Shown here piece by piece: positions 21,252-63,733 of a DNA stretch of 64,000 bases. Below the pieces are notes generated by a model. The model did no database searches and had not been told where the DNA came from. It saw only the letters and a program-made list of their open reading frames with translations. The DNA is from Patescibacteria group bacterium. GTDB taxonomy: Bacteria > Patescibacteriota > Patescibacteriia > UBA9934 > GWF2-40-263. Each line of letters opens with the position of its first letter. Position 1 is the first letter of the stretch. The position numbers and the translations under genes were made by a program. The stretch spans positions 2,530-66,529 of the forward strand of contig JAHJAM010000025.1 of the NCBI GenBank assembly GCA_018814025.1, read 5' to 3'.

Positions 21252-21266
21252 TTAGCCGGCAAATAT

Positions 21267-21287
21267 TACCACAACCCGGTTGTGGTA
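21267..21287. repeat. REP-like palindromic repeat family A, copy 1 (TACCACAAC-ccg-GTTGTGGTA)
   Basis: 21-nt element with 9-bp inverted arms. Identical copy at 21321-21341. Reverse-orientation copy at 32501-32523. Half-copy at 32910-32924. Confidence 0.85.
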
Positions 21288-21320
21288 AATGGTTTGCATC
21301 AATAATAATAGTCTTTTTTA

Positions 21321-21341
21321 TACCACAACCCGGTTGTGGTA
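21321..21341. repeat. REP-like palindromic repeat family A, copy 2
   Basis: ATACCACAACCCGGTTGTGGTAT, 54 nt after copy 1 in the same orientation. Confidence 0.85.
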
Positions 21342-21456
21342 TAGGTTTGGTTGCTCGCTCGACCCTTCGATGAATTCAAGTAGAGTAAGCTCGGGGCTGT
21401 TTGTATTTATGCACAGTATTTTTATACGCGTTTTTCTGTTATAATATCAGCAACCT

Positions 21457-22166: not shown

Positions 22167-25100
22167 ATGAAATTGTTCCAAAGCAAAACCAGGAAGCTGT
22201 TCGCCGGGTTTTTTGCGTTTGGCCTCACCTTGTCGATTGTCTCGGCGGGCATTTTCAGTTTGGTTCAGCCGGCCTGGGCGCAAGATGTCCTGAGCACCGG
22301 GCAAGCGGCTTTGGAAGCCACCAGCAGCCAAACGCCGACCGCGGGGACATCCGTCAGCGCGGGAAATCCGGCCGAGGGTCCGGCCAAAGCCTTGGGGACC
22401 GTGAATCAAAACGTGATTAAGCCATCGATTCAAATGGTTTTGGTCTCGGTTTTGTTAAATTCTTTCCAATTCCTGCTCGACCGGTTGGCCTATGAAGCGG
22501 CCGTGGCCATCGCGTCATTAGGCGCCGGGGAAACGCCGTTAATCGTTCAAAAAGAAGGCCAGGATTTGTGGGCGGATATCGGCATGGACGTGGCCGGGGA
22601 GTTTGTGGGCGGCTTGAGCGACATGAGCACGGATTTCGTGGGGTTTAATCTTTGCGCGCCGCCCAATCCTTTAGTGCGTATGAGCATTCAATTGGGCATC
22701 AAGCAAGCTTATCAGCCGCCGGAGCCGAAATGCGATATTTTGAAAGTCGGCCAAAACTGGGAAGGGTTTATTAACTCAGCCATTCAGTTATCAGACAATC
22801 CGGGCGACGCGATCATTGAAGAATTTGCCAAATCCTTGAAGCCGGGCCGGAATGAGCTGAGCGCTTCGGTGGAGATTATGCTGGAGGCCGAACACCGAAT
22901 TGATTTGGCTAAAGCCACCGGGTTTCAGCAAGCTTTAGCCGGCGACGGTTTTAAGTCAGTGACTGATTTCGTGACCGGTCAAGTGACCACGCCTTCCAGC
23001 GTGTTGCAGAAGCAATTTGAAAAAACCACCATCGAGGATCGCGATAAGGCCGCGGCCTTTCACATGCAGACCCTGATCACCAATCCGGATTATCTTTGGG
23101 CCATGCTGTTTAACACCATGAGCATTTTTACCAACACTTTGCTGTCGGAATCGCTCAATCGGATTTATACCGGCATGTTCGAAGCTTCGCCGGAGATCGA
23201 TCCTTTCAACGTTGAATATATTTCTAACAATAACCGCCAATCAGCCATTGACCGTTTTTCCAGCTACTCCTCAACTCAACCAACTTCAATTACCAATTAC
23301 AACATCATCGCCGAGTTCGTGACTTGCCCTTCGGGCGGAGTGGCGATTCCCAACATTAATAACTGCGTGATGGACGCGAATTTCGCGACCGCGGTTTCGC
23401 GCGCGGCTTCAAAGAATCCCATGACCGTTCAAGAGGCGATTGACGAAGGGCTTTTGCATGGCGATTGGCCGCTGGTCAGTCCGGATGATCGGACCAAAAA
23501 TGAAAATTCGCTGTGTTATACCTTCGGCTATTGTTATGGCAATTTAGTGAAATTGCGCAAAGCCCGGATTATCCCGGTGGGGTGGGAATTGGCGGCCAAG
23601 CGCAGCCAGCAGGGCGCGCCCGCGACTTTGCAGGAAGTGGTTGACGGTTTTGACCACTGCAACAGCCAAGGCACGATCGATAGCAGTTCAAATCGTTTTT
23701 GCCATTTGATTGATCCGAACTGGGTTTTGAAATATCCGGAAACTCAATGCCGGGCTTTTGTCAGCGGCGAACAGATTATCAGCGGCTACAGTTCGGGCCG
23801 GGCCAATACCTGCGTGGATATGCCCAGCTGCATTTCCGAAAATAATGACGGCAGCTGCGATGGCGGCTTCGGCTACTGCGTGCGCGAGAAGAATATTTGG
23901 CGTTTCCGCGGCGATGAATGTCCGGTGCAATACGCCAGCTGTTTGAAGTTTACCAACGCGGATACCAAATCGCAAAAGAGTTTATTGGTGAACACGGTTG
24001 ATTTTGGCGTGTGCGGCCAAGGCAACGCGGGCTGTTTGTGGTATCGCACGAATAAATATATCGATGACAAGGGCAATACGGACCCTTCGGACGATACTTA
24101 CGAATTTTTGCCGGCCGGGGTCAGCTACATGACGGTCGCGCGCGACGCCGCGGTTGAATACGCGGGCTCAACCCGAACCTTTGGCTATTACGCGCACGAG
24201 GATCGGATTTATTTTGACCGGGACGCGGAAGAATGTGCGTCTCAAGACGCTGGTTGTACCAAGCTATATAAAATTGCTGATAATTTAGTTTTGAATGCGG
24301 TTGCAAATGGAAGTTTTGAACAAGATGAGAATAATGACGGGGTGCCGGATGGCTGGATTGGCTTGGAAGCCACGGATCGCGAGAGTGATACTGATGAAGT
24401 TCAGACCGGCGAATATGCCTTGCATATTCATAATGAACCAAACGTGTTTAGCCAGTCCGGCATTCAATTGGCACCGAATACTTTTTATACTTTCAGCCTT
24501 TATGCCAAGCAGGGGAGTGCGGGGGCAACAGCGGCGAATGCTAAGATCAGGATTTATGACGCGTTTGGCGGCTTGATTGATCTGACCGGCTTGTCCACGA
24601 CTTGTACGGTGCAAAGCAATTACTTCCGTTTAGAGTTGCTAAACTTGAACAATGATTATTCTCGTTATGAATGTTCTTTTACTACGCCGGGCACGACCGC
24701 GGCCGCGTCATTAGAAATTGATCCGTTTAACCGAGCCCGTTTCGACGCTATTCAAATCGAGAAAGGCGCGGTGGCGTCCAATTTTGCGGATGGCTATAAT
24801 CGCGAGGGCGCGACCGCTTATCTGAAATTGGCGCCGGACTATTTGGGATGCGAAGGCAAAGCCACGGATCCCCAAGCCTGCGAGCAATATACCCAAGTTT
24901 GTACCGAACAAGAGGTGGGTTGTAATTTGTACACGCCCAAGGGCGGCGGACCGGCGATTCCGGCCATCATCAGCGCGGTGGATGCGTGTCCGGCCGAATG
25001 CGTGGGCTACGCGGCTTTTAAGCAAGAAGCCACCAAATATGAGCTGGCCTTTTTCCCGGAATATTTTATCGCGGACACGGCCGCCAGCTGTACGGCCGAG

Positions 25101-28100
25101 CAAGTGGGCTGCGACAGCTTCACGAATTTGGATGCTTTGGACCAAGGCGGAGAGGGAATTGAATATTATTCCGATTTGCGGGCTTGTTTGACGCCGGCGG
25201 ACGCGGGCGACAATACGGGCGCGGACCGGGCCGCTAATTATTTCACTTGGGAAGGCACGGATCAGGCCGGCTATCAGCTGCGTTCCTGGTGGCTTTTGCA
25301 ATCAAACCTGAGCGATGCGCCATGTTCGAATTGGACCATGAGCGGCGCCTCCTCCTTAATATGTAACGACAGCGGGTCAGGGCTGGCGGCTTGCGACAGC
25401 CATGACGATTTGGTGAACAATCCGGATTGCCGCGAGTTTTTCGATGAAAACGGAGTCCGCCATTATCGCGAATATTCCAAGACCGTTACCATTAGCGAGG
25501 ATTGCCACCCATACCGCAAGACCATTGCCTTGCGCGACGACTGTTTGGCTTCCGACGGCTATTACACCCCGGCCGGCGAGTGCCGGTACTTTGGCGTGCC
25601 TGTGGAAAGCCAGAGCTGTTCGGCTTCGGCGGTCGGCTGTCGATCATATACGGGCGGGGCCGCGCGCAATCAAAGCGTGGTTTTCGATGATAATCTTGAG
25701 AGCGGCACCGTGGCCAATTACATGACGGAAAACGGCATCAACATTGCTTTTAGCAATGAGTCGCTGGCGCCGGACGGACATTCTTTGCGCGTTTATAATG
25801 CCAGCGGCACGGAATTTATCGCCACTACTCAGGCGATTATGACCAGCGAATGCGCGACCGCGGGCGGCTGTGCCAATCAAAATAGCGAGATGAACGGCGA
25901 GTGCGTGATTGCACAAGGAGAAATTGATTGCGGTCCGCTGCGCGACAAAATCGCGGCCGGCAAGACATTTAATTTGGAATTTTTAGCCAAAGGCAATGGC
26001 GCCATCAAGGCCGCTTTAATCGAACACGGCGGCGCGGATGACCTGCATTATTTCGGCGAAGCGCAACTGACCGGCGCTTGGCGGCTTTACACGCTTGGTC
26101 CATTGGATACCAGCGATTTGGATTACATTGATCGGACCACGGTTTTAGGTTTTCAAACCAGCGGAGCCACGGAATTTTTCTTGGATAATATCCGCCTGAC
26201 GCAAGCTGAAGATAACATTACTTTGATTAAAGATTCTTGGGTGACGCCCGCGGCTTGCGATCAAACGCCCAACGGCCTGAGTTCGCCGCAGTATTACCTG
26301 GGCTGCCAGGAATATTCGGATGTCACCAACCGTCCCAATTATCTTTATCAGTTCAGCCGCTTGTGCGGGGAAGATAAGGTCGGCTGCGAGGCTTATTATC
26401 AAACTTACAATTCGCAATCGCCTTACGGCCAAGTCAATAATGCGCGCTGTTTGAATGGCGCGGCGCCGAATGGCTCGCCGGTCGGCGCTTTGACCGCCTG
26501 CCAGTTTAACGGCCGGACCGTGTGTTCGATTGCGCCCGGAACCAATTTCTGTTTGTTCAATTTAGATCAAGCCATTAGCCGGCCTTTGCCCGCCAAGATC
26601 GTTTTGGGTCCGGAAGCCAAACTGGTTTCCGGGGATCGGCCGGTCTATTTGATTGATGACGGTTCAACTTCGTGTTCGGCGGCCAATGTTGGCTGTACGG
26701 AAATCGGCCAGCCCACGTTTAATCGCGACAAAACTCAAGTCACGGGTTTTGAATCCGCCTATTTCATGAATAATCCGGATGAGTATGAAAATACTCTTTG
26801 CGCCCACAAGGCTTTATTCTGTGCTGAGTGGTCATCGACCAAAGACGGCAATTTCTACTTCAAAGATCCGCTGGATCAAACTTGTGAATACAAGACCGGC
26901 ATCACCATCGATCGGCGCGAGTTTTTTGGCTGGTTCCGTAAAGGCAGCAATGAGCCGTGCGATTGGAATGATTTGAACCAGGACGGCGCCTACCATCCGG
27001 CGGATGATTCAGCTTTAATCAAGGAAGGCGGCAAATTTGAAGTTTGGCGCAATGGCGACAGCCAGTATTCGGGCTGGGTCGCGCAATGCGATCAGAATAT
27101 GGATTTGTGCACGGAATTTTTAGACCCGACCGATTCGCAAGAAGGGCGAAACCCGCTGGGCACGTCCTATTATTTCAAAAACAACGACGCTTTAAGCGAA
27201 AGCTCTCTGGCCGCGACTCAGCGCTGCGACGGCTTAGTCAGCCAGAAGCAGGGTTGCGTGCTGTTCCACAATTCCAGCATTTCCGACATGTATTATTCGG
27301 CCGAGCCCAGCTACATTGCTTCCGAACGCGCGGATATCTTGTTCGGGGACGCACAATTTGCCAAGGTTGATCCGATTGATTGCACCAATTACGATCCGAA
27401 CGAAAATCGGCTGGGGAAAAACCTATGCGAGCTGCGCTGCGCTTACCGCACGGGCGGCTTGGCTAATCCGCTCAAGACCTTGGCGACCACGGCTTCAACC
27501 GCTGATGCGAACCTGCTGTATTCAGGCGCTTGCGTGGATAATTCCGATTGCCCAAGCCAAGTGGCGGCCAACGGCTTGACTTACGCGGGCAACTGCGTGA
27601 GCGTGGAGCCGGCGGCACGCTTTACCAATAACACTAATGCCATTGTGAAAGTGGTGCGCGATCGCGCTTGCGCCCAGTGGCTGACGTGCGAATCAAAGAG
27701 CGTGACTTTTGATGACCAGCAGCAGAAGTGGGTGGAGGTGTGCGAGAATTTGGAGCTGTGCTCGCGCTATACCCGGGAAGGGGACACCACCGAGTGCACG
27801 GCCGCGGATCAGCCTGAACCGTATGTGCTGGATGCGCTGTACTATGCGGCCCGCGACGTAACTTGGACCGGGGTGGAATATTCCGGCTACTCGATTCCGG
27901 ATCAGCTGCCCGTGGATCTTTATGACCAGGTGGATTTGAATCCCAGCAAGTGGTGCGTCAGTACCGCTTCGGGGCGGCCTTACCGCGATGAGCAAACTGA
28001 TTTAGGCGTGCCTTGCACCAGTGATGACGGTTGCGATTATCTGGCCGCGGCCGGCGACTATTATTGCAGTCCGGCCAACGAACAGTATTATGTTTTGGCC

Positions 28101-31100
28101 AATGTGGCCGGGCCGTGCACGGAAGATTACAACACGGCTTGTACCGTGGGCTTTTGTGAGGATCATCCGAATATTGCCTGCGGCAATTCCAGCCATTGTC
28201 CCGATAATGGCGAGATCTGCGTGGTGGGCTATTGCCAGGACGTATATTTGGCGATTGGCTGTGATACGAACACGCAGTGCAACGGCGTTTCCGGCGGCCG
28301 AAACATCTGCGATCCGGTGGCGCGCAAGTGCGTGAATCAATTGACAACCGGCGAAAACGCCACGGCTTGCCGCAGTGCCGGCGACTGTACGGGCATCAAT
28401 CCGACCTGCACGCCCAGCGCCTTATCTCGAGTCGGCACCTGTTTTAATCAGCAGTGCTTGCTGGATATCAAAGGCCAGCCTTACAGTGCGAAACAGGACA
28501 AGGTGATTAACCCGGAGTGCCGCGGCTATCCGGAAATCGATTCGCCGTTTTCCGGTATCCCGGGCACGGTGGTGACCAAATATACGACCAAACCACCACC
28601 GACCGATTTCCTGCCGCAAGCTCAGGAGAAAAAAGTCGGCTACGGCCAAGTGAATATTTGCGCGCCGATTCAAACCGCGGCCGGGGTTTGGGCTTATACT
28701 TCTGATTGTTTGTGCAGTTATGAAAAGATGACTTACGGCGACGGGATCAAAACCTTTTATTATCCCAAAGGCACGGATCTGGATAATTTAGAAGGCGTGT
28801 GCGTGGGCGGACAATTCGACAGCTATACTTGCGCCAAGGATTCCGAATGCGGGTGCGCACGCGACAGCAGCTGCGAGGGGAATGAAATTAGCCTGGGCAT
28901 CTGCGCGCTGCCTAAGAAAAAAGAAACTTATCAAGGCTGGACCGGCCATTGCATTGAACGGGATTCGTCCACGCATATTTATGTGGAACAAGAAAAGAAC
29001 GCGTGTTTAACTTGGCTGCCCGTGGATCGGCTGACCGGGGCCACTGATTTGTACGGAAAAGATTTGGAAGCCGGACAATTCATCAATCAAGACGTTTTCT
29101 ATTGTTCCGAAACCGGCTATTACATGGATTTGTATCCGACCGGCACGGTTTTTGATGATTACAGTAATATTGTGGGCATTGATTATGCTTGCGCGTCGTC
29201 AATAGACGCTCCGGGAAATTTTCAGTGTGAGCAGGGCGAACGGGATAGTTGTGAAAAAAATGCTTACTGTCCGGCAGGCTGGGTGGCGCTGGTGGGTGTT
29301 TGCCATGGAAGTAGCAAGACGGAGACCAGTTTAGGGTATTGTACGGCGGATGTGTTGAATGAAAATTCAGACCTCCGAACCAAAATGCCGATTCAGGCCG
29401 CTGATCTGGCCTTGCCGCCGCTGGCACCGAATCTTAATGATTGTCCATATTTTTGCGTGCCAAAAAACAGTTATCATTCCGAGGGCAATGATGTCGGAAC
29501 GGCCTGCTTCGGTTCCGGACAGCTTTCAACAACTAATGTGGACGGCACTTCGGTTTTTGCCACCCCTTATTATCTGAACGATAACTTAGGAGTCGCGAAC
29601 GGCGAATCGTTTGCCAGCAGTACGGGCGCCTTCAAGAAATATTCCGACTGCGTGGTGCGCGGCGTGCCGGTGGGAACGAGCGAATACGAAACAGACTGGT
29701 ATTATAATTCCAGTTTTGAAGACGAAAATAGCGGATGGTATAAGGGGTATGGCTGGAAGCGCAATACTGATCTCAGTCCGGGCGAAATTGCGGTAGATTT
29801 CGGTCTCGGGCACGCCGCTTATGGTATTTTGCATCGGGCCGTGGGCGCCGGATATAAACATTGCGAAAGTTTAGGACAGGCTTGCACGACCGATGCTCAA
29901 TGTTTGGGTAATTATTCGACGGCGTTTGGTCCGGGCGGCATTCCGTCCAGTTTGACTGGCGCAACACTTCTGGCGTTTGAGGCGTTTTTGAATCAAGTTG
30001 CCCCATTTGTCGGCCAGTGCGGAACTTACGGCGGACCCGAGACGACCAGCGGATCGATTCGGCCTTATTACGGCTGTTATGAACTGACCCAAGTTTCTCA
30101 AGAAGTGACTACGGGTGCGGCCTTGGCGGAAAGCAACAAAGCCTGGACCAATCGTTTGTGGCAGAGCGCGGATCCGCTTTATCAAACCAAGACCAATATG
30201 CCCCAATGGACCGGTTCGGCTACCCAACCTTTGGAATATACGGTGCTGGATGCTCCCGCACCGGCCGGACAGGCTTTGTTTGCGGATTATTTCCAGCGCG
30301 ACGGGCTGACCAATAGATATCTCATGCGGGATTTTGCCGATGCTTTCCCCTTGCCGGTGCGGACTGATTTGGGCGGTTTTGCCATCGGTACAGTGGGTTT
30401 GGATATCAAAGCCGGCATTACGGACGCGGAAGCTTACAAATATCCGAGTTTGAATCAGTATAAAACCGGAGCCAGCAGTACGGCTTTGAAATCCGGGCAC
30501 ACGCCATACAGCTTAGCGCTCTCTTATGAAGACTTGGGAAATGGTTCTGAACTATCCGCGGTTTCAGGGGACATCGCTTTAGACCAGTATGGCCGTTTTG
30601 GAAACAGCAATAGTACGGAGGTAGGCGTCAGTCCGGATCCGGACGGGCAACAAAGCGTGCGCCGTTTGTTATCACAATTTTTTGCAAAAACATATGCGGT
30701 TTATCAATATGTTTGGAATGACAACCGCGGCACGTATGTGAAACAGCCGGACGCGGCCGGGGAGCAGTACGAATCAATGGATATTTCCAGCCAGGGCGAT
30801 GCTTTGGGCACAGAGTTTAATCAATATTCCGGCAATGGCGGACAGGTGCCGGTAGTGAAGTCAGTGGGTTCATGCCAAAACGGCTTATGCGCCGAAGGTA
30901 CGTCCGGCACGATGTCGGTCAACGGCATCGACGATGAAGATATTGTGATGAATGGCTATCAAACTTTCCAAGCCACGTTAAGCTTCTTTACCTATGCCCA
31001 GCCCAACCAATTGCCGATCCGCCAGATTATTGTGGATTGGGGAAATGGCACCGAGGAGGGGTCGATGGACACTTGGACGAATTGGCCTTTAACCAGCCAC

Positions 31101-31643
31101 AGCGGTTCTTCGGCCGCGGATAATTATTATAAAAATCATCGCGGCACTGACGGTTATGGCGGGGAAGTTTGGTGCGATGAAGGACGCATGGGGTTTGGCG
31201 GCAGCGGCGAAGCGTGCGAAAGCTCTTACCTGACTTTTGTGAATTCTTACCGATGTACCCCAACCATACTGACGGAATTGGATACAGCCGGGCGCGTGTG
31301 CCGGTTCCTAACTTTGCCAAACGGCGAGCGGAGATTGGAATATTCGCCGTGTATTGATCAGGGCTTGCAGGCTTGCGGCTTCCAGCCGCGCGTGTATGTG
31401 AAGGATAACTGGGGCTGGTGCACGGGGTATTGTACGAGTAATCCGGATGAGACACCGCTGGATGGTATTGATAATCCACCTGATTCAACTAATCAATGTT
31501 ATGGAAGTGAGTGTGATTTTGTGAGCTGTCCGAGTACGGGGCTGGGTGGTACTCCAACGTCAGATGTGTGCCCTGATGGTGAGTTTAGCGGTATAGATGA
31601 TCCATGGATATATTTTGACGGAGTGATTAAAATTCAGCCGTAG
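22167..31643 (+). CDS. giant secreted cysteine-rich surface protein (3158 aa) with two CBM4/9-like jelly-roll domains
   Basis: Uninterrupted 9.5-kb ORF. Signal peptide 'FAFGLTLSIVSAGIFSLVQPAWAQD'. More than 150 Cys. 'NAVANGSFEQDENNDGVPDGW...FDAIQIEKG' (nt ~24300-24780). 'FDDNLESGT...FFLDNIRLTQAE' (nt ~25690-26210). Confidence 0.9.
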   Translation: MKLFQSKTRKLFAGFFAFGLTLSIVSAGIFSLVQPAWAQDVLSTGQAALEATSSQTPTAGTSVSAGNPAEGPAKALGTVNQNVIKPSIQMVLVSVLLNSFQFLLDRLAYEAAVAIASLGAGETPLIVQKEGQDLWADIGMDVAGEFVGGLSDMSTDFVGFNLCAPPNPLVRMSIQLGIKQAYQPPEPKCDILKVGQNWEGFINSAIQLSDNPGDAIIEEFAKSLKPGRNELSASVEIMLEAEHRIDLAKATGFQQALAGDGFKSVTDFVTGQVTTPSSVLQKQFEKTTIEDRDKAAAFHMQTLITNPDYLWAMLFNTMSIFTNTLLSESLNRIYTGMFEASPEIDPFNVEYISNNNRQSAIDRFSSYSSTQPTSITNYNIIAEFVTCPSGGVAIPNINNCVMDANFATAVSRAASKNPMTVQEAIDEGLLHGDWPLVSPDDRTKNENSLCYTFGYCYGNLVKLRKARIIPVGWELAAKRSQQGAPATLQEVVDGFDHCNSQGTIDSSSNRFCHLIDPNWVLKYPETQCRAFVSGEQIISGYSSGRANTCVDMPSCISENNDGSCDGGFGYCVREKNIWRFRGDECPVQYASCLKFTNADTKSQKSLLVNTVDFGVCGQGNAGCLWYRTNKYIDDKGNTDPSDDTYEFLPAGVSYMTVARDAAVEYAGSTRTFGYYAHEDRIYFDRDAEECASQDAGCTKLYKIADNLVLNAVANGSFEQDENNDGVPDGWIGLEATDRESDTDEVQTGEYALHIHNEPNVFSQSGIQLAPNTFYTFSLYAKQGSAGATAANAKIRIYDAFGGLIDLTGLSTTCTVQSNYFRLELLNLNNDYSRYECSFTTPGTTAAASLEIDPFNRARFDAIQIEKGAVASNFADGYNREGATAYLKLAPDYLGCEGKATDPQACEQYTQVCTEQEVGCNLYTPKGGGPAIPAIISAVDACPAECVGYAAFKQEATKYELAFFPEYFIADTAASCTAEQVGCDSFTNLDALDQGGEGIEYYSDLRACLTPADAGDNTGADRAANYFTWEGTDQAGYQLRSWWLLQSNLSDAPCSNWTMSGASSLICNDSGSGLAACDSHDDLVNNPDCREFFDENGVRHYREYSKTVTISEDCHPYRKTIALRDDCLASDGYYTPAGECRYFGVPVESQSCSASAVGCRSYTGGAARNQSVVFDDNLESGTVANYMTENGINIAFSNESLAPDGHSLRVYNASGTEFIATTQAIMTSECATAGGCANQNSEMNGECVIAQGEIDCGPLRDKIAAGKTFNLEFLAKGNGAIKAALIEHGGADDLHYFGEAQLTGAWRLYTLGPLDTSDLDYIDRTTVLGFQTSGATEFFLDNIRLTQAEDNITLIKDSWVTPAACDQTPNGLSSPQYYLGCQEYSDVTNRPNYLYQFSRLCGEDKVGCEAYYQTYNSQSPYGQVNNARCLNGAAPNGSPVGALTACQFNGRTVCSIAPGTNFCLFNLDQAISRPLPAKIVLGPEAKLVSGDRPVYLIDDGSTSCSAANVGCTEIGQPTFNRDKTQVTGFESAYFMNNPDEYENTLCAHKALFCAEWSSTKDGNFYFKDPLDQTCEYKTGITIDRREFFGWFRKGSNEPCDWNDLNQDGAYHPADDSALIKEGGKFEVWRNGDSQYSGWVAQCDQNMDLCTEFLDPTDSQEGRNPLGTSYYFKNNDALSESSLAATQRCDGLVSQKQGCVLFHNSSISDMYYSAEPSYIASERADILFGDAQFAKVDPIDCTNYDPNENRLGKNLCELRCAYRTGGLANPLKTLATTASTADANLLYSGACVDNSDCPSQVAANGLTYAGNCVSVEPAARFTNNTNAIVKVVRDRACAQWLTCESKSVTFDDQQQKWVEVCENLELCSRYTREGDTTECTAADQPEPYVLDALYYAARDVTWTGVEYSGYSIPDQLPVDLYDQVDLNPSKWCVSTASGRPYRDEQTDLGVPCTSDDGCDYLAAAGDYYCSPANEQYYVLANVAGPCTEDYNTACTVGFCEDHPNIACGNSSHCPDNGEICVVGYCQDVYLAIGCDTNTQCNGVSGGRNICDPVARKCVNQLTTGENATACRSAGDCTGINPTCTPSALSRVGTCFNQQCLLDIKGQPYSAKQDKVINPECRGYPEIDSPFSGIPGTVVTKYTTKPPPTDFLPQAQEKKVGYGQVNICAPIQTAAGVWAYTSDCLCSYEKMTYGDGIKTFYYPKGTDLDNLEGVCVGGQFDSYTCAKDSECGCARDSSCEGNEISLGICALPKKKETYQGWTGHCIERDSSTHIYVEQEKNACLTWLPVDRLTGATDLYGKDLEAGQFINQDVFYCSETGYYMDLYPTGTVFDDYSNIVGIDYACASSIDAPGNFQCEQGERDSCEKNAYCPAGWVALVGVCHGSSKTETSLGYCTADVLNENSDLRTKMPIQAADLALPPLAPNLNDCPYFCVPKNSYHSEGNDVGTACFGSGQLSTTNVDGTSVFATPYYLNDNLGVANGESFASSTGAFKKYSDCVVRGVPVGTSEYETDWYYNSSFEDENSGWYKGYGWKRNTDLSPGEIAVDFGLGHAAYGILHRAVGAGYKHCESLGQACTTDAQCLGNYSTAFGPGGIPSSLTGATLLAFEAFLNQVAPFVGQCGTYGGPETTSGSIRPYYGCYELTQVSQEVTTGAALAESNKAWTNRLWQSADPLYQTKTNMPQWTGSATQPLEYTVLDAPAPAGQALFADYFQRDGLTNRYLMRDFADAFPLPVRTDLGGFAIGTVGLDIKAGITDAEAYKYPSLNQYKTGASSTALKSGHTPYSLALSYEDLGNGSELSAVSGDIALDQYGRFGNSNSTEVGVSPDPDGQQSVRRLLSQFFAKTYAVYQYVWNDNRGTYVKQPDAAGEQYESMDISSQGDALGTEFNQYSGNGGQVPVVKSVGSCQNGLCAEGTSGTMSVNGIDDEDIVMNGYQTFQATLSFFTYAQPNQLPIRQIIVDWGNGTEEGSMDTWTNWPLTSHSGSSAADNYYKNHRGTDGYGGEVWCDEGRMGFGGSGEACESSYLTFVNSYRCTPTILTELDTAGRVCRFLTLPNGERRLEYSPCIDQGLQACGFQPRVYVKDNWGWCTGYCTSNPDETPLDGIDNPPDSTNQCYGSECDFVSCPSTGLGGTPTSDVCPDGEFSGIDDPWIYFDGVIKIQP

Positions 31644-32500: not shown

Positions 32501-32523
32501 ATACCACAACCGGGTTGTGGTAT
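32501..32523. repeat. REP-like palindromic repeat family A, inverted-orientation copy (ATACCACAACCGGGTTGTGGTAT)
   Basis: Same arms as the 21267/21321 copies, but the asymmetric centre is CGG instead of CCG, i.e. opposite orientation. Confidence 0.85.
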
Positions 32524-32909: not shown

Positions 32910-32924
32910 ATACCACAACCCGGT
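32910..32924. repeat. partial family-A REP copy (ATACCACAACCCGGT) abutting a family-B repeat
   Basis: Left arm plus centre only. Confidence 0.6.
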
Positions 32925-32929
32925 AACCG

Positions 32930-32950
32930 TTTCCATCATCCGGCTATGGA
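32930..32950. repeat. REP-like repeat family B (TTCCATCATCCGGCTATGGAA), left flank of the RAYT gene
   Basis: Imperfect palindrome. Reverse-complement copies at 33672-33692 and 33582-33602. Related copy CCATCATCCGGTGATGG at 51012-51028. Confidence 0.8.
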
Positions 32951-32953
32951 AAA

Positions 32954-33565
32954 TTATTTCATAAATTCTTGATAAGATTTTTGATCCATAAATTCTTCGT
33001 CTAGCCATTTAGGATCGACAATGTTATTTGCACCTGAAGAATTTAGAAAGTCAGCGTAGCTGGACCAAGGGTAGTCACGCAGAAATTGGTTTATTTGATC
33101 CCAATTTGTGTGTGGTTTGTTAATGAGTTTCAGTGGATTGCAGTGAATATATTTAGTTAAGTAGATAAGTTGTCTCTCGTTTGTAACTTGTTTGATCTTG
33201 TAGGGCCCCTCAAATAACCTACCCGTTCTCTTGTGTTTTAGGTTGAAATATTTTGTGTATCCGTTACCTAATCGTTGAAAAAAATGTGATATTCCATTGT
33301 CAGAATTTTGTTGGAGTAAGATGTGAAAGTGGTTTGGCATTAAACAGTAACACCGGATGTTGACCAGTTTTGTCCGACATGTGTTTTTATTGTAGCCGTT
33401 ATTTCTAGTTAATGTACATGTTGCTTTGCGATTGATTTGATTAAAGACTGCCATTCCTTTCAAGAATCTTTGATAGTCATTTTTATCGTCAAAGATAATT
33501 CGTTTATCAACTCCGCGATTATAGATGTGACAATATTGTCCATTGTAAAATTCCATTCTTTTCAT
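32954..33565 (-). mobile_element. REP-associated tyrosine transposase (RAYT; IS200-like HuH/Y1 transposase)
   Basis: HuH motif 'CLMPNHFHILLQ'. Catalytic Tyr region 'LIYLTKYIHCNPLK'. About 200 aa. Likely start MKRMEFYNGQ at 33565, but the ORF is open to 33664. Flanked by inverted family-B palindromes. Confidence 0.8.
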
Positions 33566-33671
33566 AAAGAATTCCAAAGCCGGATGATGGAAAATAAAAC
33601 TTCCACCAACTGGTGTTTGGTGGAAGTACACTGATAATATCGCACATTTTTTCATGATTGTCAACTACAAA

Positions 33672-33692
33672 TTCCATAGCCGGATGATGGAA
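33672..33692. repeat. REP-like repeat family B, right flank of RAYT (TTCCATAGCCGGATGATGGAA)
   Basis: Inverted relative to 32930-32950. Near-duplicate 90 nt upstream at 33582-33602 (AATTCCAAAGCCGGATGATGGAAA). Confidence 0.8.
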
Positions 33693-33701
33693 AGTTTGGT
33701 A

Positions 33702-34082
33702 CGATATTTTTGAGGAGTGGCGACTGGTAGCGAGCGAGTGGTGGCTTTATGCCGTCGACTGTTCAAACGGATTCGACTGCATGGAAGGCCATGAGTCGAC
33801 TTTGGCACCAGACCGGTTGGAATGAAGGCGAATTCCATTCCGGGCCGGTGTGCCCGCCCATCCGGGCTAAGCGGTTTCCAAGAAGCCTTTTGGAAAACGC
33901 ATCCGTGGCTACCACGGTTTTTTCGGCCGCCGGGTGGCGTAGCTCAAGCGGAGCTCGACACCCAATCCTCACTGCCGGTGAGTTCTGACTTGTTCGCAAG
34001 TCCGAGCTCGCCGGCTTTTTTGTTGTGTGCTAATATTTTTTTGAGGCCAGACTGTCAGCCCTGAAACGCTACCACTCCTCAA
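33702..34082 (+). ncRNA. candidate structured noncoding element (~380 nt, GC-rich) bounded by inverted repeats; identity unresolved
   Basis: No credible ORF on either strand. Terminal inverted repeats TTGAGGAGTGG..TGGTAGCG (33702-33724) and CGCTACCACTCCTCAA (34066-34082). Internal hairpins (TTCCAAGAAGCCTTTTGGAA; CGTGGCTACCACG). GCCGGC+T6 at ~34008-34020. Confidence 0.3.
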
Positions 34083-34091
34083 CGGTCGCCG

Positions 34092-34124
34092 CTCCTCGTC
34101 TCGATTTCGATCAAACGAGGAGGA
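34092..34124 (+). promoter_or_regulatory. RBS-sequestering hairpin upstream of the small lipoprotein gene
   Basis: CTCCTCGT (34093-34100) pairs with ACGAGGAG (34115-34122), overlapping the SD GAGGAGGA 7 nt before ATG 34129. Confidence 0.5.
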
Positions 34125-34128
34125 TCCA

Positions 34129-34335
34129 ATGAAAACCCAGACACACCAAGTACTACCCGTTTTTTCCGCACTCGCGGTTTGCTTCATCTGCGGGTTTGGT
34201 GGTTGCAGTGCGCCGGAGAAACCGATCCGCGCGCTTTTCCCTGCTTTGAATCGGTCAGCGGGATTGGAAGGCGACGAGCATGACCGAACAGTAGGGTCGG
34301 CTTGGGTCGATTTGGATTCAGGTCTGGTGGTTTAA
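34129..34335 (+). CDS. small putative lipoprotein (68 aa)
   Basis: Strong SD. Signal peptide with Cys-containing lipobox-like 'FGGCSAPE'. Followed by a terminator. Confidence 0.55.
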   Translation: MKTQTHQVLPVFSALAVCFICGFGGCSAPEKPIRALFPALNRSAGLEGDEHDRTVGSAWVDLDSGLVV

Positions 34336-34342
34336 GCCTCAC

Positions 34343-34385
34343 GGCCGGTCGGAGTTCTGCTCCGACCGGCTCTTTTCTTTTGCGT
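34343..34385 (+). terminator. rho-independent terminator
   Basis: CCGGTCGGAG-TTCTG-CTCCGACCGG followed by CTCTTTTCTTTTG. Confidence 0.8.
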
Positions 34386-43269: not shown

Positions 43270-43704
43270 ATGCCCCAACAGTTTACCGTGCCACAATTTA
43301 TCGACGCGGAGGATAAAATCCTCGGACCGATCACCATCCGCCAGTTTGTCATCTTATTAGTGGCGTTTATGACGGATGCGGTTTTGTACAAACTTCTGCC
43401 GTTTGTGCCTTTTCTTTTGGTGGCCATTCCCTTAATCGCCGTGGCCGGCATTATCGCTTTTGTGAAGATTAACGGCATGCCCTTTCATTATTTTATTTTG
43501 AATTTGCTGCAAACTCTGAAGCGGCCGCAACTGAGAGTGTGGGATAAGACGATTAACGATTCGGAGCTGCGGGATTTGATCAAAGTGGTCAAAGAACCCC
43601 CGCCGCCGCCGCCGGAACGCAAGGCGCCGGTCTCCCGGTCGCGCTTGAACGAATTAACCTTAGTCGTCAACACTGGCGGACTTTATAAACCCGAGGGTGA
43701 ATAA
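43270..43704 (+). CDS. small two-TM membrane protein, VirB3/PrgI/TcpE-like
   Basis: 144 aa. Two adjacent hydrophobic helices. Located immediately upstream of the VirB4-like ATPase, as in Gram-positive T4SS. Confidence 0.45.
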   Translation: MPQQFTVPQFIDAEDKILGPITIRQFVILLVAFMTDAVLYKLLPFVPFLLVAIPLIAVAGIIAFVKINGMPFHYFILNLLQTLKRPQLRVWDKTINDSELRDLIKVVKEPPPPPPERKAPVSRSRLNELTLVVNTGGLYKPEGE

Positions 43705-43709
43705 ACAAT

Positions 43710-44387
43710 ATGCAAAGCAAACAAATGGCAAAATCTAAACCCGGGCCGGCCACGCAGCGCTATTTGGATATCGCGGAAATCCGCGATGATTTGGTGATCA
43801 TGAAGGACGGTACGGTGCGGGGCGTGCTCATGGTTTCCAGCATCAACTTCGCCCTTAAATCCGTGGATGAGCAAGAGGCGACCATCCAGGCCTACATGTC
43901 TTTTTTGAACAGTTTGGAATATCCGATTCAGATCGTGATTCAATCGCGTAAGATGAACATTGACGCCTACCTCGAATCTTTAAACGAACAATACAAAAAA
44001 TCCGTGAATGATTTGCTGCGGGCGCAAATTCTCGATTACCGCAATTTCGTTCAAGAATTGGTCAGTTTGGGAGAGATTATGCAGAAGCGCTTTTACGTGG
44101 TCGTGCCTTATGATCCGATCAGTAATAAGAAAAAGAATTTTTTCAGCCGCTTATCCGAGGCGATTTCGCCGGTGGCCGCGGCCAAGCTTTCCAATAAACA
44201 AATGAAGGATCGGCTCGATCAATTGGGCCGCCGGCTGGAAATGACCGCCGGCCAGCTGGAGTCCATGGGCTTGCAGGTGGCGCGTTTGGATACGCAAAGC
44301 CTGATTGAATTGTATTACACGGCTTACAATCCCGATCTTTTTGAAGATCAGAAATTGGATGATATTTCCAAGATCCGGACCGACTAA
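43710..44387 (+). CDS. VirB4/TraC-family N-terminal domain (split gene, part 1)
   Basis: GAGGGTGA RBS. 'DGTVRGVLMVSSINFALKSVDEQEATIQAYMSFLNSLEYPIQIVIQSRK' resembles the N-terminal region of Gram-positive VirB4-like ATPases. Same reading frame as the next ORF. Confidence 0.55.
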   Translation: MQSKQMAKSKPGPATQRYLDIAEIRDDLVIMKDGTVRGVLMVSSINFALKSVDEQEATIQAYMSFLNSLEYPIQIVIQSRKMNIDAYLESLNEQYKKSVNDLLRAQILDYRNFVQELVSLGEIMQKRFYVVVPYDPISNKKKNFFSRLSEAISPVAAAKLSNKQMKDRLDQLGRRLEMTAGQLESMGLQVARLDTQSLIELYYTAYNPDLFEDQKLDDISKIRTD

Positions 44388-44411
44388 TTTTTAATCAGCA
44401 AATGAGAATTT

Positions 44412-46568
44412 ATGGCCATTGAAATAGGCAAAATCCAAAAAGGCGCCATGCCCGCGCCGCCGCCGGCGCCGGTCAAACCCAAAGAAATGACCGAGGTGGA
44501 GAAACAAGCGGCCGAAACCAAAATTTTGTTGGAAGAGGAAAGGATCTACCGCCAAGGCGTGGTCACGGTTCGGGATTTGATTTCCCCGGCCGCTTTCGAA
44601 GTCAATCCGACTTTTTTGAAAATTTCCGGGATTTACGTGCGCACCATGTTCGTGATCACTTATCCGCGCCACTTGGGCGTGGGCTGGTCTTCGCCTTTGA
44701 TCAACCTGAATAAGACTTTGGATATCGCCATGTTTTTCTATCCGGTCAAGGCGAACATTATTTTGAAGCAATTGCAGAAGAAGGTCGGTATTTTAGAAGC
44801 CGGGATCATGGCGGACGCGGAAAAAGGTGCGCCGCGCGACCCGCTGCGGGAAACGGCCTTGCGCGACATTGAAGCTTTGCGCGACGCCTTAACTCAGGGC
44901 GTGGAGCATTTTTTCCAATTCGGTTTTTACGTGACCATGTATGCCAAGAATGAAGAGGAGCTGGAAAAGACTTCGCAAGAATTCGAGGCCATGCTGGGCA
45001 GCAAGTTGATTTACAGCAAAGCCGGCTACTATCAGGCCGAGCAGGGCTTCAACTCAACTTTGCCTCTGGGCAACGACGAGCTGATGATCAGCTATAACAT
45101 GAATACTTCGCCGATCGCGGCTTCCTTTCCGTTTATCAGTTCGGATTTGACTTCGGACAACGGGATTTTATTCGGCATCAACCGGCATAACAACTCTTTG
45201 ATTCTGTTTGACCGCTTCAGCTTGCAGAATGCCAATTCGGTGGTGTTCGCGACTTCGGGGGCGGGCAAATCCTACGCGATCAAATTAGAAATTTTGCGCT
45301 CATTGATGATGGGCGTGGAAGTGATCGTGATTGATCCGGAAATGGAATATAAGCATTTGTCCGACGCCGTGGGCGGCACTTACGTGAATGTTTCTCTGGC
45401 TTCGCCGGCCAAAATCAACCCGTTTGATTTGCCTAGAAAAGTGGGCGAGGACACGAAAGTCGACGACATTATTCGCAGTGCGGTGATCACCCTCAAGGGC
45501 TTGTTGCGGATTATGATCGGCAAGCCGATCGGCGAAGCCGGCAAGGTCGGTTTTGAACCGGAAGAGGATTCGATTTTGGACCGGGCCTTGATTGAAACTT
45601 TTGCCAAAAAAGACATTACGGCCGAGACCGCGAATTTGTCAGCCGTGGAGCCGCCGATCATGCAGGATTTTCAAGATGTGCTGGAAGGCATGGAAGGGGC
45701 GGATGATTTGGTGGCGCGTTTGAAAAAATATACGGAGGGCACCTTCTCCGGCTTGCTGAATTCGCCGACCACGGTGGAAATGAACAATCAGCTGGTGATC
45801 TTTTCCGTGCGCGATTTGGAAGATGAACTGCGGCCCATGGCGATTTATACCATCGTCAATTATATTTGGAACGTGGTGCGCGCCGAGCGGAAAAAGCGCA
45901 TTTTGGTGATTGACGAAGCTTGGTGGCTGATGCAGCACGACGATTCCGCGAAATTCATTTTTGCTCTGGTCAAGCGCTGCCGTAAGTATTTCATGGGCGT
46001 GACCACCATCACCCAGGACGTGAATGACTTTTTGCGCTCGCCTTACGGCCAGGCCATTGTGACCAACTCTTCAATGCAAATTCTTTTGAAGCAGTCGCCG
46101 GCCGGCATTGATAAAATTCAAGAAACTTTCCAGCTGACGGACGGAGAAAAATATCTTTTGTTGGAATCGGCCGTGGGCGAGGGGATTTTCTTCGCCGGAG
46201 CCAAACACGCGGCCATCAAGGTGGTGGCTTCGTACACAGAGGATCAAATCGTGACCACGAATCCGGCTCAACTTTTGGAAATTGAGGGCGCGAAAAAGGA
46301 ATTTGATGAAAAAATGGCGGCCGAAGAAACGGCCAGAAAGGAAAGCGCGGGACCGGGCGGATCAGTCCAAGCCCAAAGTGAAGAACCAGTTGAGGAACCG
46401 GCGGAAGCGGCGGTTGAAGAATTAAGCGCGGAGCAAATCGAAGCCCAAAAGGTCCAAGCCCAAGCCGCGGCCGCCTTTTTAGCCAAAGAGCAAGGCGGAG
46501 CCGCGCCCGGTACCGAAGCCGCGGGCCGAGCTGAAGCGGATAAATTACGCGAATCTTTAAAGGTTTAA
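44412..46568 (+). CDS. VirB4/TrsE/PrgJ-family type IV secretion ATPase (split gene, part 2)
   Basis: Walker A 'FATSGAGKSY'. Walker B 'RILVIDEAWWLM'. CagE/TrbE/VirB4 family. Acidic C-terminal tail. Confidence 0.85.
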   Translation: MAIEIGKIQKGAMPAPPPAPVKPKEMTEVEKQAAETKILLEEERIYRQGVVTVRDLISPAAFEVNPTFLKISGIYVRTMFVITYPRHLGVGWSSPLINLNKTLDIAMFFYPVKANIILKQLQKKVGILEAGIMADAEKGAPRDPLRETALRDIEALRDALTQGVEHFFQFGFYVTMYAKNEEELEKTSQEFEAMLGSKLIYSKAGYYQAEQGFNSTLPLGNDELMISYNMNTSPIAASFPFISSDLTSDNGILFGINRHNNSLILFDRFSLQNANSVVFATSGAGKSYAIKLEILRSLMMGVEVIVIDPEMEYKHLSDAVGGTYVNVSLASPAKINPFDLPRKVGEDTKVDDIIRSAVITLKGLLRIMIGKPIGEAGKVGFEPEEDSILDRALIETFAKKDITAETANLSAVEPPIMQDFQDVLEGMEGADDLVARLKKYTEGTFSGLLNSPTTVEMNNQLVIFSVRDLEDELRPMAIYTIVNYIWNVVRAERKKRILVIDEAWWLMQHDDSAKFIFALVKRCRKYFMGVTTITQDVNDFLRSPYGQAIVTNSSMQILLKQSPAGIDKIQETFQLTDGEKYLLLESAVGEGIFFAGAKHAAIKVVASYTEDQIVTTNPAQLLEIEGAKKEFDEKMAAEETARKESAGPGGSVQAQSEEPVEEPAEAAVEELSAEQIEAQKVQAQAAAAFLAKEQGGAAPGTEAAGRAEADKLRESLKV

Positions 46569-47857: not shown

Positions 47858-47951
47858 GGAGAGGTACCCAAGAGGCTGAAGGGGCGGGTTTGCTAAACCT
47901 GTAGGTCGGGGTTTTCTCGGCGCGGGGGTTCGAATCCCCCCCTCTCCGCCA
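47858..47951 (+). tRNA. tRNA-Ser (anticodon GCT)
   Basis: Acceptor GGAGAGG/CCTCTCC. Anticodon loop TTGCTAA. Long variable arm. T-arm GGGGG-TTCGAAT-CCCCC. Encoded CCA. Confidence 0.85.
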
Positions 47952-48045
47952 TCGAGCTTAGCTCGATTGTTCCGCGGTTAGCCAAAGCTCAGCTTTGGCC
48001 GCACTCGAGATAAGCTCGATGATGAGTCGAGCTCAGCTCGACCAC
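47952..48045 (+). repeat. tRNA-Ser-associated ~95-nt repeat, copy 1 (three AGCT-centred hairpins)
   Basis: TCGAGCTtAGCTCGA, CCAAAGCTcAGCTTTGG, GTCGAGCTcAGCTCGAC modules. ~90% identical copy at 48172-48265. Confidence 0.8.
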
Positions 48046-48081
48046 AAACCGTGAGGGTAAACAGTTTGAACTTTGTCGCAA

Positions 48082-48171
<90 letters not shown>

Positions 48172-48265
48172 TCGAGCTTAGCTCGATTGTTCTACGGTTA
48201 GCCAAAGCTGAGCTTTGGCTGTACTCGAGATAAGTTCGATAATTAGTCGAGCTTAGCTCGACCAA
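48172..48265 (+). repeat. tRNA-Ser-associated ~95-nt repeat, copy 2
   Basis: tcgagcttagctcgattgttctacggttagccaaagctgagctttggctgtactcgagataagttcgataattagtcgagcttagctcgacc. Confidence 0.8.
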
Positions 48266-48288
48266 TGAAAATAATTTTCTCTTGATTT

Positions 48289-51007: not shown

Positions 51008-51011
51008 CTTT

Positions 51012-51028
51012 CCATCATCCGGTGATGG
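51012..51028. repeat. palindromic repeat family B copy (CCATCATCCGGTGATGG) between convergent recG and radA
   Basis: Near-perfect palindrome related to the RAYT-flanking repeats. Probably also serves as a bidirectional terminator. Confidence 0.7.
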
Positions 51029-51035
51029 ACAAGTG

Positions 51036-63588: not shown

Positions 63589-63733
63589 CTCCCCCCGGCC
63601 CCCTCCTTCGTAAGGAGGGGGAGAAACGCGAGGGAATAACCTCCCCCCGGCCCCCTCCTTCGTAAGGAGGGGGAGTCCGAGAGGATGCAGTACGTCCTCC
63701 TCCCCCTTACGAAGGGGGAGGTCGGGAGGGGGT
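63589..63733. repeat. three copies (two direct, one inverted) of a ~36-nt SD/anti-SD-like hairpin element in the pheS-pheT spacer
   Basis: CCTCCCCCCGGCCCCCTCCTTCGTAAGGAGGGGGAG at 63589-63624 and 63649-63684. Inverted copy CTCCTCCCCCTTACGAAGGGGGAGGTCGGGAGGGGGTC at 63695-63733. Confidence 0.85.

Follow-up and report, generated by a model that had tools for sequence, protein, structure and literature searches.

A Y1/HUH transposase gene between inverted copies of an imperfect palindrome: a probable REPtron/TIRtron-type cassette in a Patescibacteria genome

Introduction

What kind of element is formed by a single Y1/HUH transposase gene lying between inverted copies of a short imperfect palindrome in a Patescibacteria genome, and do the palindromes belong to the protein? 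The question is raised by a 64,000-nt stretch of DNA, hereafter the window, from a Patescibacteria group bacterium (assembly GCA_018814025.1, contig JAHJAM010000025.1, positions 2,530 to 66,529, forward strand); the host is Uhrbacteria-like, the closest named relatives of its seryl-tRNA synthetase (SerRS) being Candidatus Uhrbacteria, and both the Y1 protein and the neighbouring SerRS are annotated from "Patescibacteria group bacterium". To our knowledge, systems that pair repetitive extragenic palindromes (REPs) with REP-associated tyrosine transposases (RAYTs) are known in detail from hardly any groups other than Proteobacteria, Cyanobacteria and Bacteroidetes, and the literature searched contained nothing linking REP or RAYT with Patescibacteria or the Candidate Phyla Radiation beyond an incidental KEGG label. 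The 764-bp segment 32930-33693 is probably a REPtron/TIRtron-type cassette, that is, the gene of a class-2 Y1/HUH endonuclease/ligase of single-stranded DNA (ssDNA) together with its cognate hairpins, here called B, inverted at both ends. The kind of element is known and the lineage is undescribed in the literature searched; by its equivalog score and by the lack of a GTAG foot it falls outside the strict canonical definition of a RAYT.

The encoded protein

The minus-strand open reading frame (ORF) extends over 33664..32954 when read from a TTG codon; the start that matches the homologues is the ATG at 33565, which is also that of the NCBI call MBU0646548.1 (203 amino acids (aa), beginning MKRMEFYNGQ). 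An alignment of 28 sequences, the window protein and 27 homologues, places the HUH motif at H79-F-H81 (codons 33331-33323) and the catalytic Tyr139 within YIHCNP (codon 33151-33149); H79, H81, Tyr139 and N143 are invariant and P144 nearly so, conservation extends to HxxNRG in the N-terminal and WSS in the C-terminal part, and the intact ORF retains all residues that are invariant in the family. The Pfam profile PF01797 (Y1_Tnp) matches with 35.4 bits against a gathering cutoff of 23, and the sole further match is to the NCBIfam RAYT equivalog NF047646. A single-sequence phmmer search of the PDB with the window protein gave no match; with the profile of the family alignment, E. coli TnpA_REP (4ER8) is the best PDB entry (E=0.005), HUH and Y-x-x-x-N-P being aligned, and ISDra2 TnpA the second. 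The AlphaFold 2 (AF2) model (predicted local distance difference 86.9, predicted template modelling score 0.84, residues 50-56 as the sole disordered stretch) also has 4ER8 as its top Foldseek match (TM score 0.61/0.73); the IS608, ISDra2 and IS200 transposases reach about 0.41 when normalised to the query, and IS608 and ISDra2 0.52-0.64 when normalised to the target. In the scheme of Quentin et al. 2018 (PMC6006769), class 2 (RAYT-like) is defined by Y-x-x-x-N-P and IS200 by Y-x-x-x-Q. The Pfam match above cutoff, the Y-x-x-x-N-P motif and the best sequence and fold matches to 4ER8 therefore support a Y1/HUH transposase of the RAYT and not the IS200 type. The original prediction of a RAYT with an IS200-like HUH/Y1 transposase core, built on HFH and the Tyr in YIHCNP, is thus borne out in its essentials.

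In a motif comparison under the Quentin scheme, with no tree, the window protein looks like subclass 2.1 ("TIRYT"), both in its motifs (PNHFH, LFEG, YIHCNP and WSS, the relatives having mostly LFQG and also YIHLNP) and in its length, which falls within 200-240 aa. A Pfam scan of the 203-aa protein, made at the sequence level, found no helix-turn-helix domain; a C-terminal one resembling DnaA_C is a TIRYT feature.

Palindrome B and the layout of the cassette

The B 21-mer TTCCATAGCCGGATGATGGAA, searched with up to three mismatches, has four matches in the window against 0.01 expected in shuffles (Table 1). The two outer copies, whose inverted arrangement had been predicted, form a perfect 22-nt inverted repeat (22/22); relative to the gene the copies stand at -127 and -27 upstream and, inverted, at +3 downstream. 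The third copy of the original prediction exists and had been misplaced at 33582-33602; its true position falls within the ORF only given unlikely upstream TTG or ATG starts. The predicted palindrome between recG and radA is likewise real: it occupies the 28-bp gap between the stop codons of the convergent recG (48956-51007) and radA (52355-51036), both confirmed by NCBIfam above cutoffs. The gene-flanking copies fold into hairpins with a 6-bp stem and a 9-nt loop, the recG/radA copy folds better as ssDNA (-5.9 kcal/mol), and no T-run follows the B copies.

Table 1. Positions of the gene, the palindromes and the leader signals, counted from the first nucleotide of the window
Feature	Position	Strand	Remark
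Y1/HUH transposase gene, 203 aa, class 2, RAYT/TIRYT type	32954..33565	-	Pfam, alignment, AF2/Foldseek
B, gene-distal 3' arm of the 22-nt inverted repeat	32930..32951 (21-mer 32931-32951, 0 mismatches)	-	2 nt past TAA stop
B, distal upstream arm of the 22-nt inverted repeat	33672..33693 (21-mer 33672-33692, 0 mismatches)	+	upstream edge of AT-rich segment
B, proximal upstream copy, 1 mismatch (20/21)	33572..33592	+	6 nt before ATG; orientation as distal upstream copy
B-like solo copy, 18/21, core CCATCATCCGGTGATGG at 51012-51028	51010..51030	-	3 mismatches
Leader hairpin ACTTCCACCAAACACCAGTTGGTGGAAGT, 11-bp stem, -10.5 kcal/mol as ssDNA, followed by TTTTATTTT on the gene strand	33599..33627	-	terminator- or attenuator-like
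Sigma-70-like promoter match, TTGACA-17-GATATT with TG	33636..33664	-	between the two upstream B copies, towards the gene; consensus match only
TTCCAAGAAGCCTTTTGGAA, hairpin with B-type TTCCA...TGGAA foot	33876..33895	+	184 nt outside cassette
Family A ATACCACAACCSGGTTGTGGTAT, near-perfect palindrome, -8.6 kcal/mol	21266-21288, 21320-21342, 32501-32523; half copy 32910-32924		
Exact 15-nt half of family A, ATACCACAACCCGGT	32910..32924	+	5 nt from B arm (6 nt from 21-nt match)
Family C CCATCGAGCTTAGCTCGATTG	47949, 48169, 48242		
Family D GCCAAAGCTSAGCTTTGGC	47981, 48200		
Family E CCCCCTCCTTCGTAAGGAGGGGG	63599, 63651, inverted at 63699		about 50-nt spacing, within 63599-63721

Between the outer B arms the GC content is 31-40%, against 46-61% on both sides, and the drop coincides with the arms, so that the cassette stands out as a 764-bp AT-rich segment; its Y1 gene is the single copy in the window. 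Read in gene orientation, the upstream part consists of cgTACCAAAC, TTTCCATCATCCGGCTATGGAA (33693-33672), tttgtag, TTGACA-17-GATATT and ACTTCCACCAAACACCAGTTGGTGGAAGT with TTTATT; there follow TTCCATCATCCGGCTTTGGAA (33592-33572), ttcttt, the ATG, 203 codons, TAA and tt, and the 3' end is made up of TTCCATAGCCGGATGATGGAA(A) (32951-32930), cggtt and ACCGGGTTGTGGTAT. The leader hairpin, which occurs once in the window, has the TTCCA...TGGAA foot in common with B; motifs with this foot number five in the window against 1.1 expected, all within 32931-33895. The window gene itself holds no internal B copy, the best internal match (12/21) being equal to the shuffle mean; a 9-mer at codons 61-64, TGTCGGACA, resembles the REP cores of some relatives and is too short to count as one.

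The flanks of the cassette may carry the two halves of another palindrome. An exact half of family A lies beside the 3' B arm, and a degenerate form of the other half, GTTTGGTAC (33694-33702, compared with TGTGGTAT), abuts the opposite arm. The cassette appears to have entered the genome as a unit, because the GC drop falls at the outer B arms, the gene is AT-rich in all 68 homologous loci compared (see below) and A halves lie at both ends; these halves are suggestive of a landing inside a resident family-A palindrome.

The gene and its palindrome among homologues

The original prediction regarded such a system as unusual in a minimal genome, a view that the distribution of the gene does not support. 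A HMMER scan of 1.84 billion cluster representatives returned 2,235 clusters (50% identity) at E<=1e-30 and 18,505 at E<=1e-10, so the gene is common in the phylum and no oddity; the nearest Y1 relatives are 43-49% identical, and those with source names are almost all Patescibacteria. A plasmid- or phage-borne family was considered and rejected, since only distant homologues (<=35% identity) were found there, on a few plasmids and in one phage record.

Eighty homologous metagenome loci were fetched, 73 of them usable for palindrome scoring; each locus was given as flank score the best inverted repeat that pairs the 250 nt before the Y1 gene with the 250 nt after it, and the threshold was >=15 (shuffled controls score about 8, with a maximum of 14). 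A locus-specific palindrome is present on both sides of the gene in 49/73 homologous loci (67%) and around 6/221 neighbouring genes (2.7%; Fisher p=9e-31), and flanking inverted palindromes are thus a family-wide trait. The repeats are palindromes of 17-36 nt that differ in nearly every locus, stand at a median position of about -51 nt relative to the start codon and, downstream, 0-10 nt past the stop, and are mutually inverted in about 36/49 loci (counted from the locus table), a pattern that the window arrangement fits. The same data bear on the possibility that the palindromes serve in transcription, as ordinary terminators or operators, and are unlinked to the protein. Such signals would sit comfortably at intergenic positions, one of them between convergent genes, in a window rich in hairpins (50 strong ones against about 7 in shuffles); this explanation is already disfavoured, and is very improbable, given the gene-specific linkage across the family, the co-divergence described next, the copies found within the ORF of relatives and the B copies lacking a T-run.

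The more alike two proteins are, the more alike are their palindromes (Mantel p=0.001); above 60% protein identity, pairs share 81% of the palindrome. Paralogues sharing a locus have separate palindromes (L082, L123, L126), and paralogues in relatives, which match the query at 30-43% (they were compared with the query only), carry different palindromes. Away from the gene, solo copies or tight inverted REPIN-like doublets occur in 10/49 loci (L063, L065, L086, L106 and L108 among them), amounting to 21 dispersed copies in about 371 kb of locus sequence. In L086, L063, L106 and L108 inverted doublets of the locus palindrome lie kilobases from the gene, and L063 has one palindrome nested within another. 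The Y1 gene is more AT-rich than its flanks in 68/68 loci with enough flank for the comparison (mean 34.0% against 43.0% GC, 8.9 points on average); low GC thus characterises the family, and in the window gene it does not by itself prove recent transfer.

Intragenic copies of the palindrome

In 20/49 relatives an in-frame copy of the flanking palindrome lies inside the ORF at codons 46-69, before HUH, in what is a disordered loop in the AF2 model, and in 8/49 another lies at codons 147-159, after the helix of the catalytic Tyr; six loci have both. Loci with such copies include L092, L093, L128, L132, L101, L133, L064, L065 and L115. L128 contains five palindrome copies, two of them encoding QLGGETPK(S/L), and elsewhere the copies translate, depending on orientation, as xIEV[EQ]PxY or GG[SP]TSI, for example. 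The loop is of similar length with or without a recognisable copy (61.8 and 60.9 residues), and in the syntenic loci L065 and L066, whose genes are still 71% identical, the upstream, intragenic and downstream copies have all switched from GAGGTCSGACCTC to GAGGCYTSGCCTC (also given as TGATNGAGGTCSGACCTCAATCA to TGAAAGAGGCYTSGCCTCTTTCA) with compensatory stem changes. The joint change of three copies and the unchanged loop length point to concerted evolution and not to independent insertions, and palindrome copies in the family appear to be kept matched in this way.

According to Quentin et al. (PMC6006769), in-frame REPs are peculiar to subclass 2.4, where they lie between HuH and Y. That subclass (Bertels group 4) is like the relatives of the window gene in having the palindrome in frame inside the ORF; it differs in its motifs (WQ and YIxNNP) and in the place of its insertions, the copies in the relatives standing before HuH and after Y, and the window gene having none. 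It is tentatively proposed, as a possibility well short of the main interpretation, that a Patescibacteria-wide clade of class-2 Y1 genes keeps its target hairpin at up to four fixed positions (upstream, in two surface loops of the ORF and after the stop), that these copies evolve in concert, and that the intragenic ones are functional and not accidental. If so, the intragenic copies would be parts of a self-processing or autoregulatory circuit, or a source of REPIN-like doublets by internal deletion, a behaviour undescribed for known REPtrons.

Residence and movement

On whether the element is resident, as RAYTs are, or moves as a unit, the observations pull in opposite directions. Three syntenic locus pairs (L113/L136, L081/L103 and L065/L066) have gene identities of 71-82% and flank identities of 73-85%; since the two are similar, the gene can stay at one site for a long time. 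Many related genes sit in unrelated contexts, and among the 73 loci there is no near-identical gene pair, the best being 82% identical. The same population is represented by two further assemblies, GCA_018822945.1 (JAHJJE010000042.1) and a contig of Logan SRR2540949. At this locus they have 99.97% identity to the window, and their 4-5 differences all lie outside the element and are therefore uninformative on its mobility. An empty-site search through SerRS relatives of 69-72% identity found that synteny upstream of serS is not conserved, with no DNA similarity; the closest SerRS match (83%), on a 1.9-kb contig, was not included in this comparison. A scan of a genome-contig collection (without the source genome) with TCCANNNCCGGATGATGGAAA gave 60 single, chance-like matches in unrelated taxa, none of them Patescibacteria.

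Nature of the element

The REPtron/TIRtron-type interpretation is drawn from the fold and motifs of the protein, the inverted arrangement, the family-wide linkage and the co-divergence of protein and palindrome, and several observations weigh against it. The equivalog NF047646 was missed (41.2 bits against a cutoff of 80), the foot of B is TTCCA/TGGAA instead of the canonical GT[AG]G, and the gene-flanking copies are weak hairpins as ssDNA (-3.4 to -3.9 kcal/mol, z about -2 to -2.8). The REP families of classical RAYTs comprise tens to hundreds of copies, and the sole dispersed B copy in 64 kb differs at 3/21 positions. The element shows no polymorphism in the two further assemblies, and no excision junction or empty site was found in the related loci and assemblies compared; the single diverged distant copy and the lack of polymorphism do not bear out the original claim of an active or recently active system. 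The degenerate A half needs one indel to match (8/9), and the insertion-site reading is only suggestive. Finally, the protein motifs (NHFH, LFEG/LFQG, YIH[LC]NP, WSS) resemble subclass 2.1, for which no REPs were found by Quentin et al. 2018 (PMC6006769).

The alternative that survives best, though unlikely, is an autonomous IS200-like insertion sequence (IS), in which B would represent the element ends, the whole 764-bp unit would transpose and no separate REP-like population would exist. IS200 is about 0.7 kb in size, close to the cassette, and its leader has a terminator-like hairpin, comparable with that of the window; IS200/IS608 TnpA (subclass 1.1) shares the HUH/Y1 catalytic core, the hairpins at the ends and the small single-gene unit. 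A discrete AT-rich unit bounded exactly by a perfect 22-nt inverted repeat, its apparent insertion into another palindrome, an AT-richness relative to the host that holds in 68/68 loci and is common for mobile DNA, the few dispersed copies (confined to 10/49 loci) and the many unrelated contexts of related genes are all compatible with this explanation. However, IS200/IS605 transposases have Y-x-x-x-Q and a core of roughly 150 aa only, with same-orientation subterminal hairpins and many near-identical copies per genome, whereas the window has YIHCNP in a 203-aa protein with a C-terminal tail, inverted hairpins and one copy; the fold is nearer to TnpA_REP than to IS608 or ISDra2, no near-identical pair exists among the 73 loci, in the three syntenic pairs the gene has kept its site across about 25% DNA divergence, and solo palindromes and doublets occur without the gene, including the copy between recG and radA.

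Quite improbable is an inactive relic, a decaying cassette whose protein no longer acts on B, with the recG/radA hairpin as an unrelated, chance terminator-like palindrome. The weak hairpins at the gene ends, the one, diverged, distant B copy and the lack of movement between three near-identical assemblies would agree with decay; on the other side, the intact ORF with every invariant residue and the identity of the arms (22/22, and 20/21 for the third copy) argue against an old relic, an 18/21 match such as that at 51010 is expected about 0.01 times per window, and the copies kept matched across speciation in relatives argue for an ongoing function of the family.

For the REPtron/TIRtron-type cassette, a working cycle may be modelled on those of E. 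coli TnpA_REP and IS608 TnpA. In it, the enzyme would bind the imperfect B hairpin in ssDNA, for instance on the lagging-strand template; Tyr139 would cut next to the hairpin and form a 5'-phosphotyrosine link, the HUH histidines holding a metal ion, and the enzyme would then rejoin the DNA. Such a cycle would maintain the match between B copies and protein and now and then give rise to solo copies like the one between recG and radA. The second upstream B copy and the terminator-like hairpin are located in the leader.

Comparison with known systems

The E. coli enzyme TnpA_REP (RAYT, YafM; PDB 4ER8; Quentin subclass 2.2, Bertels group 2) shares the Y1/HUH fold and Y-x-x-x-N-P with the window protein, and the E. 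coli REPtron shares the gene, apparently of low copy number, between inverted copies of its own imperfect palindrome and the solo copies between convergent genes; by contrast, the window protein is 13% identical to the E. coli one, longer and provided with a C-terminal tail containing WSS, and the window palindrome lacks the GT[AG]G foot, has very few dispersed copies visible and accompanies a gene strongly AT-rich relative to the host. The TIRYTs of TIRtrons (subclass 2.1, Bertels group 1; Di Nocera 2013, PMC3733652; Quentin 2018, PMC6006769) resemble the window protein in NH[YF]H, an FQ-type motif, Y[IV]HLNP, an SS tail and a length of 200-240 aa; their genes are flanked by terminal inverted repeats (TIRs) that may be self-complementary, and their repeat families are small or absent (PMC3733652; PMC6006769). 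The reported TIRs, however, have the motif GGGGWSAS, which is absent from B, and subclass 2.1 is reported without REP-like hairpins, whereas in the Patescibacteria clade they stand at both ends of the element and also occur as solo copies, as doublets and inside the gene.

The same kind of element is now found in the ultra-small, streamlined genomes of Patescibacteria, as a large family with thousands of clusters. Since each member has its own co-diverging hairpin of 17-36 nt, the family offers a natural series for the co-evolution of HUH enzymes and hairpins, and it is a possible source of orthogonal sequence-specific enzymes that bind or cleave ssDNA, such as HUH tags. For annotation, it may account for several short palindrome families in such genomes, and the label "transposase" does not here denote a classical IS.

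Other palindromes and neighbouring features

Besides B, the window has four further palindrome families (A, C, D and E; Table 1), which are built like the palindromes flanking homologues elsewhere and may be those of further Y1 paralogues that lie beyond the window. Across 645 kb of related loci none of them was found, except for one E match with two mismatches in L098 (at 19253). Two family-A copies lie 54 nt apart after rsmA/ksgA and one in the leader of a SemiSWEET-like gene, and families C and D come after each of two tRNA-Ser genes (47949-48266).

Beside the cassette, positions 33694-34022 (+), and up to 34100, are GC-rich and without an ORF; the RNA fold of 33700-34375 has z=-8.2 relative to shuffles, with a long hairpin and a U-run near 33965-34022, and B-like feet occur at 33876-33895 and, as AATTCCATTCCGG, at 33831-33843. 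Rfam gave no match to the stretch, even at E<=10, and ARAGORN found no transfer-messenger RNA in it; it is a structured RNA of an undescribed kind or else an accumulation of decayed hairpin repeats. An ORF of 68 aa lies at 34129-34335 (+); it has a ribosome-binding site (GGAGG) and a signal resembling that of lipoproteins (…CFICGFGGC), is annotated as a gene in one assembly (L146) and matches no family. After it, a strong terminator (34343-34371) lies just upstream of serS. Upstream of the region, 22167-31643 encodes a secreted-looking giant protein of 3,158 aa, and downstream, at about 43270-46568, a cluster with PrgI, TraC-like and TraG-type P-loop domains (Pfam labels from the identical contig L145) is type IV secretion- or conjugation-like.

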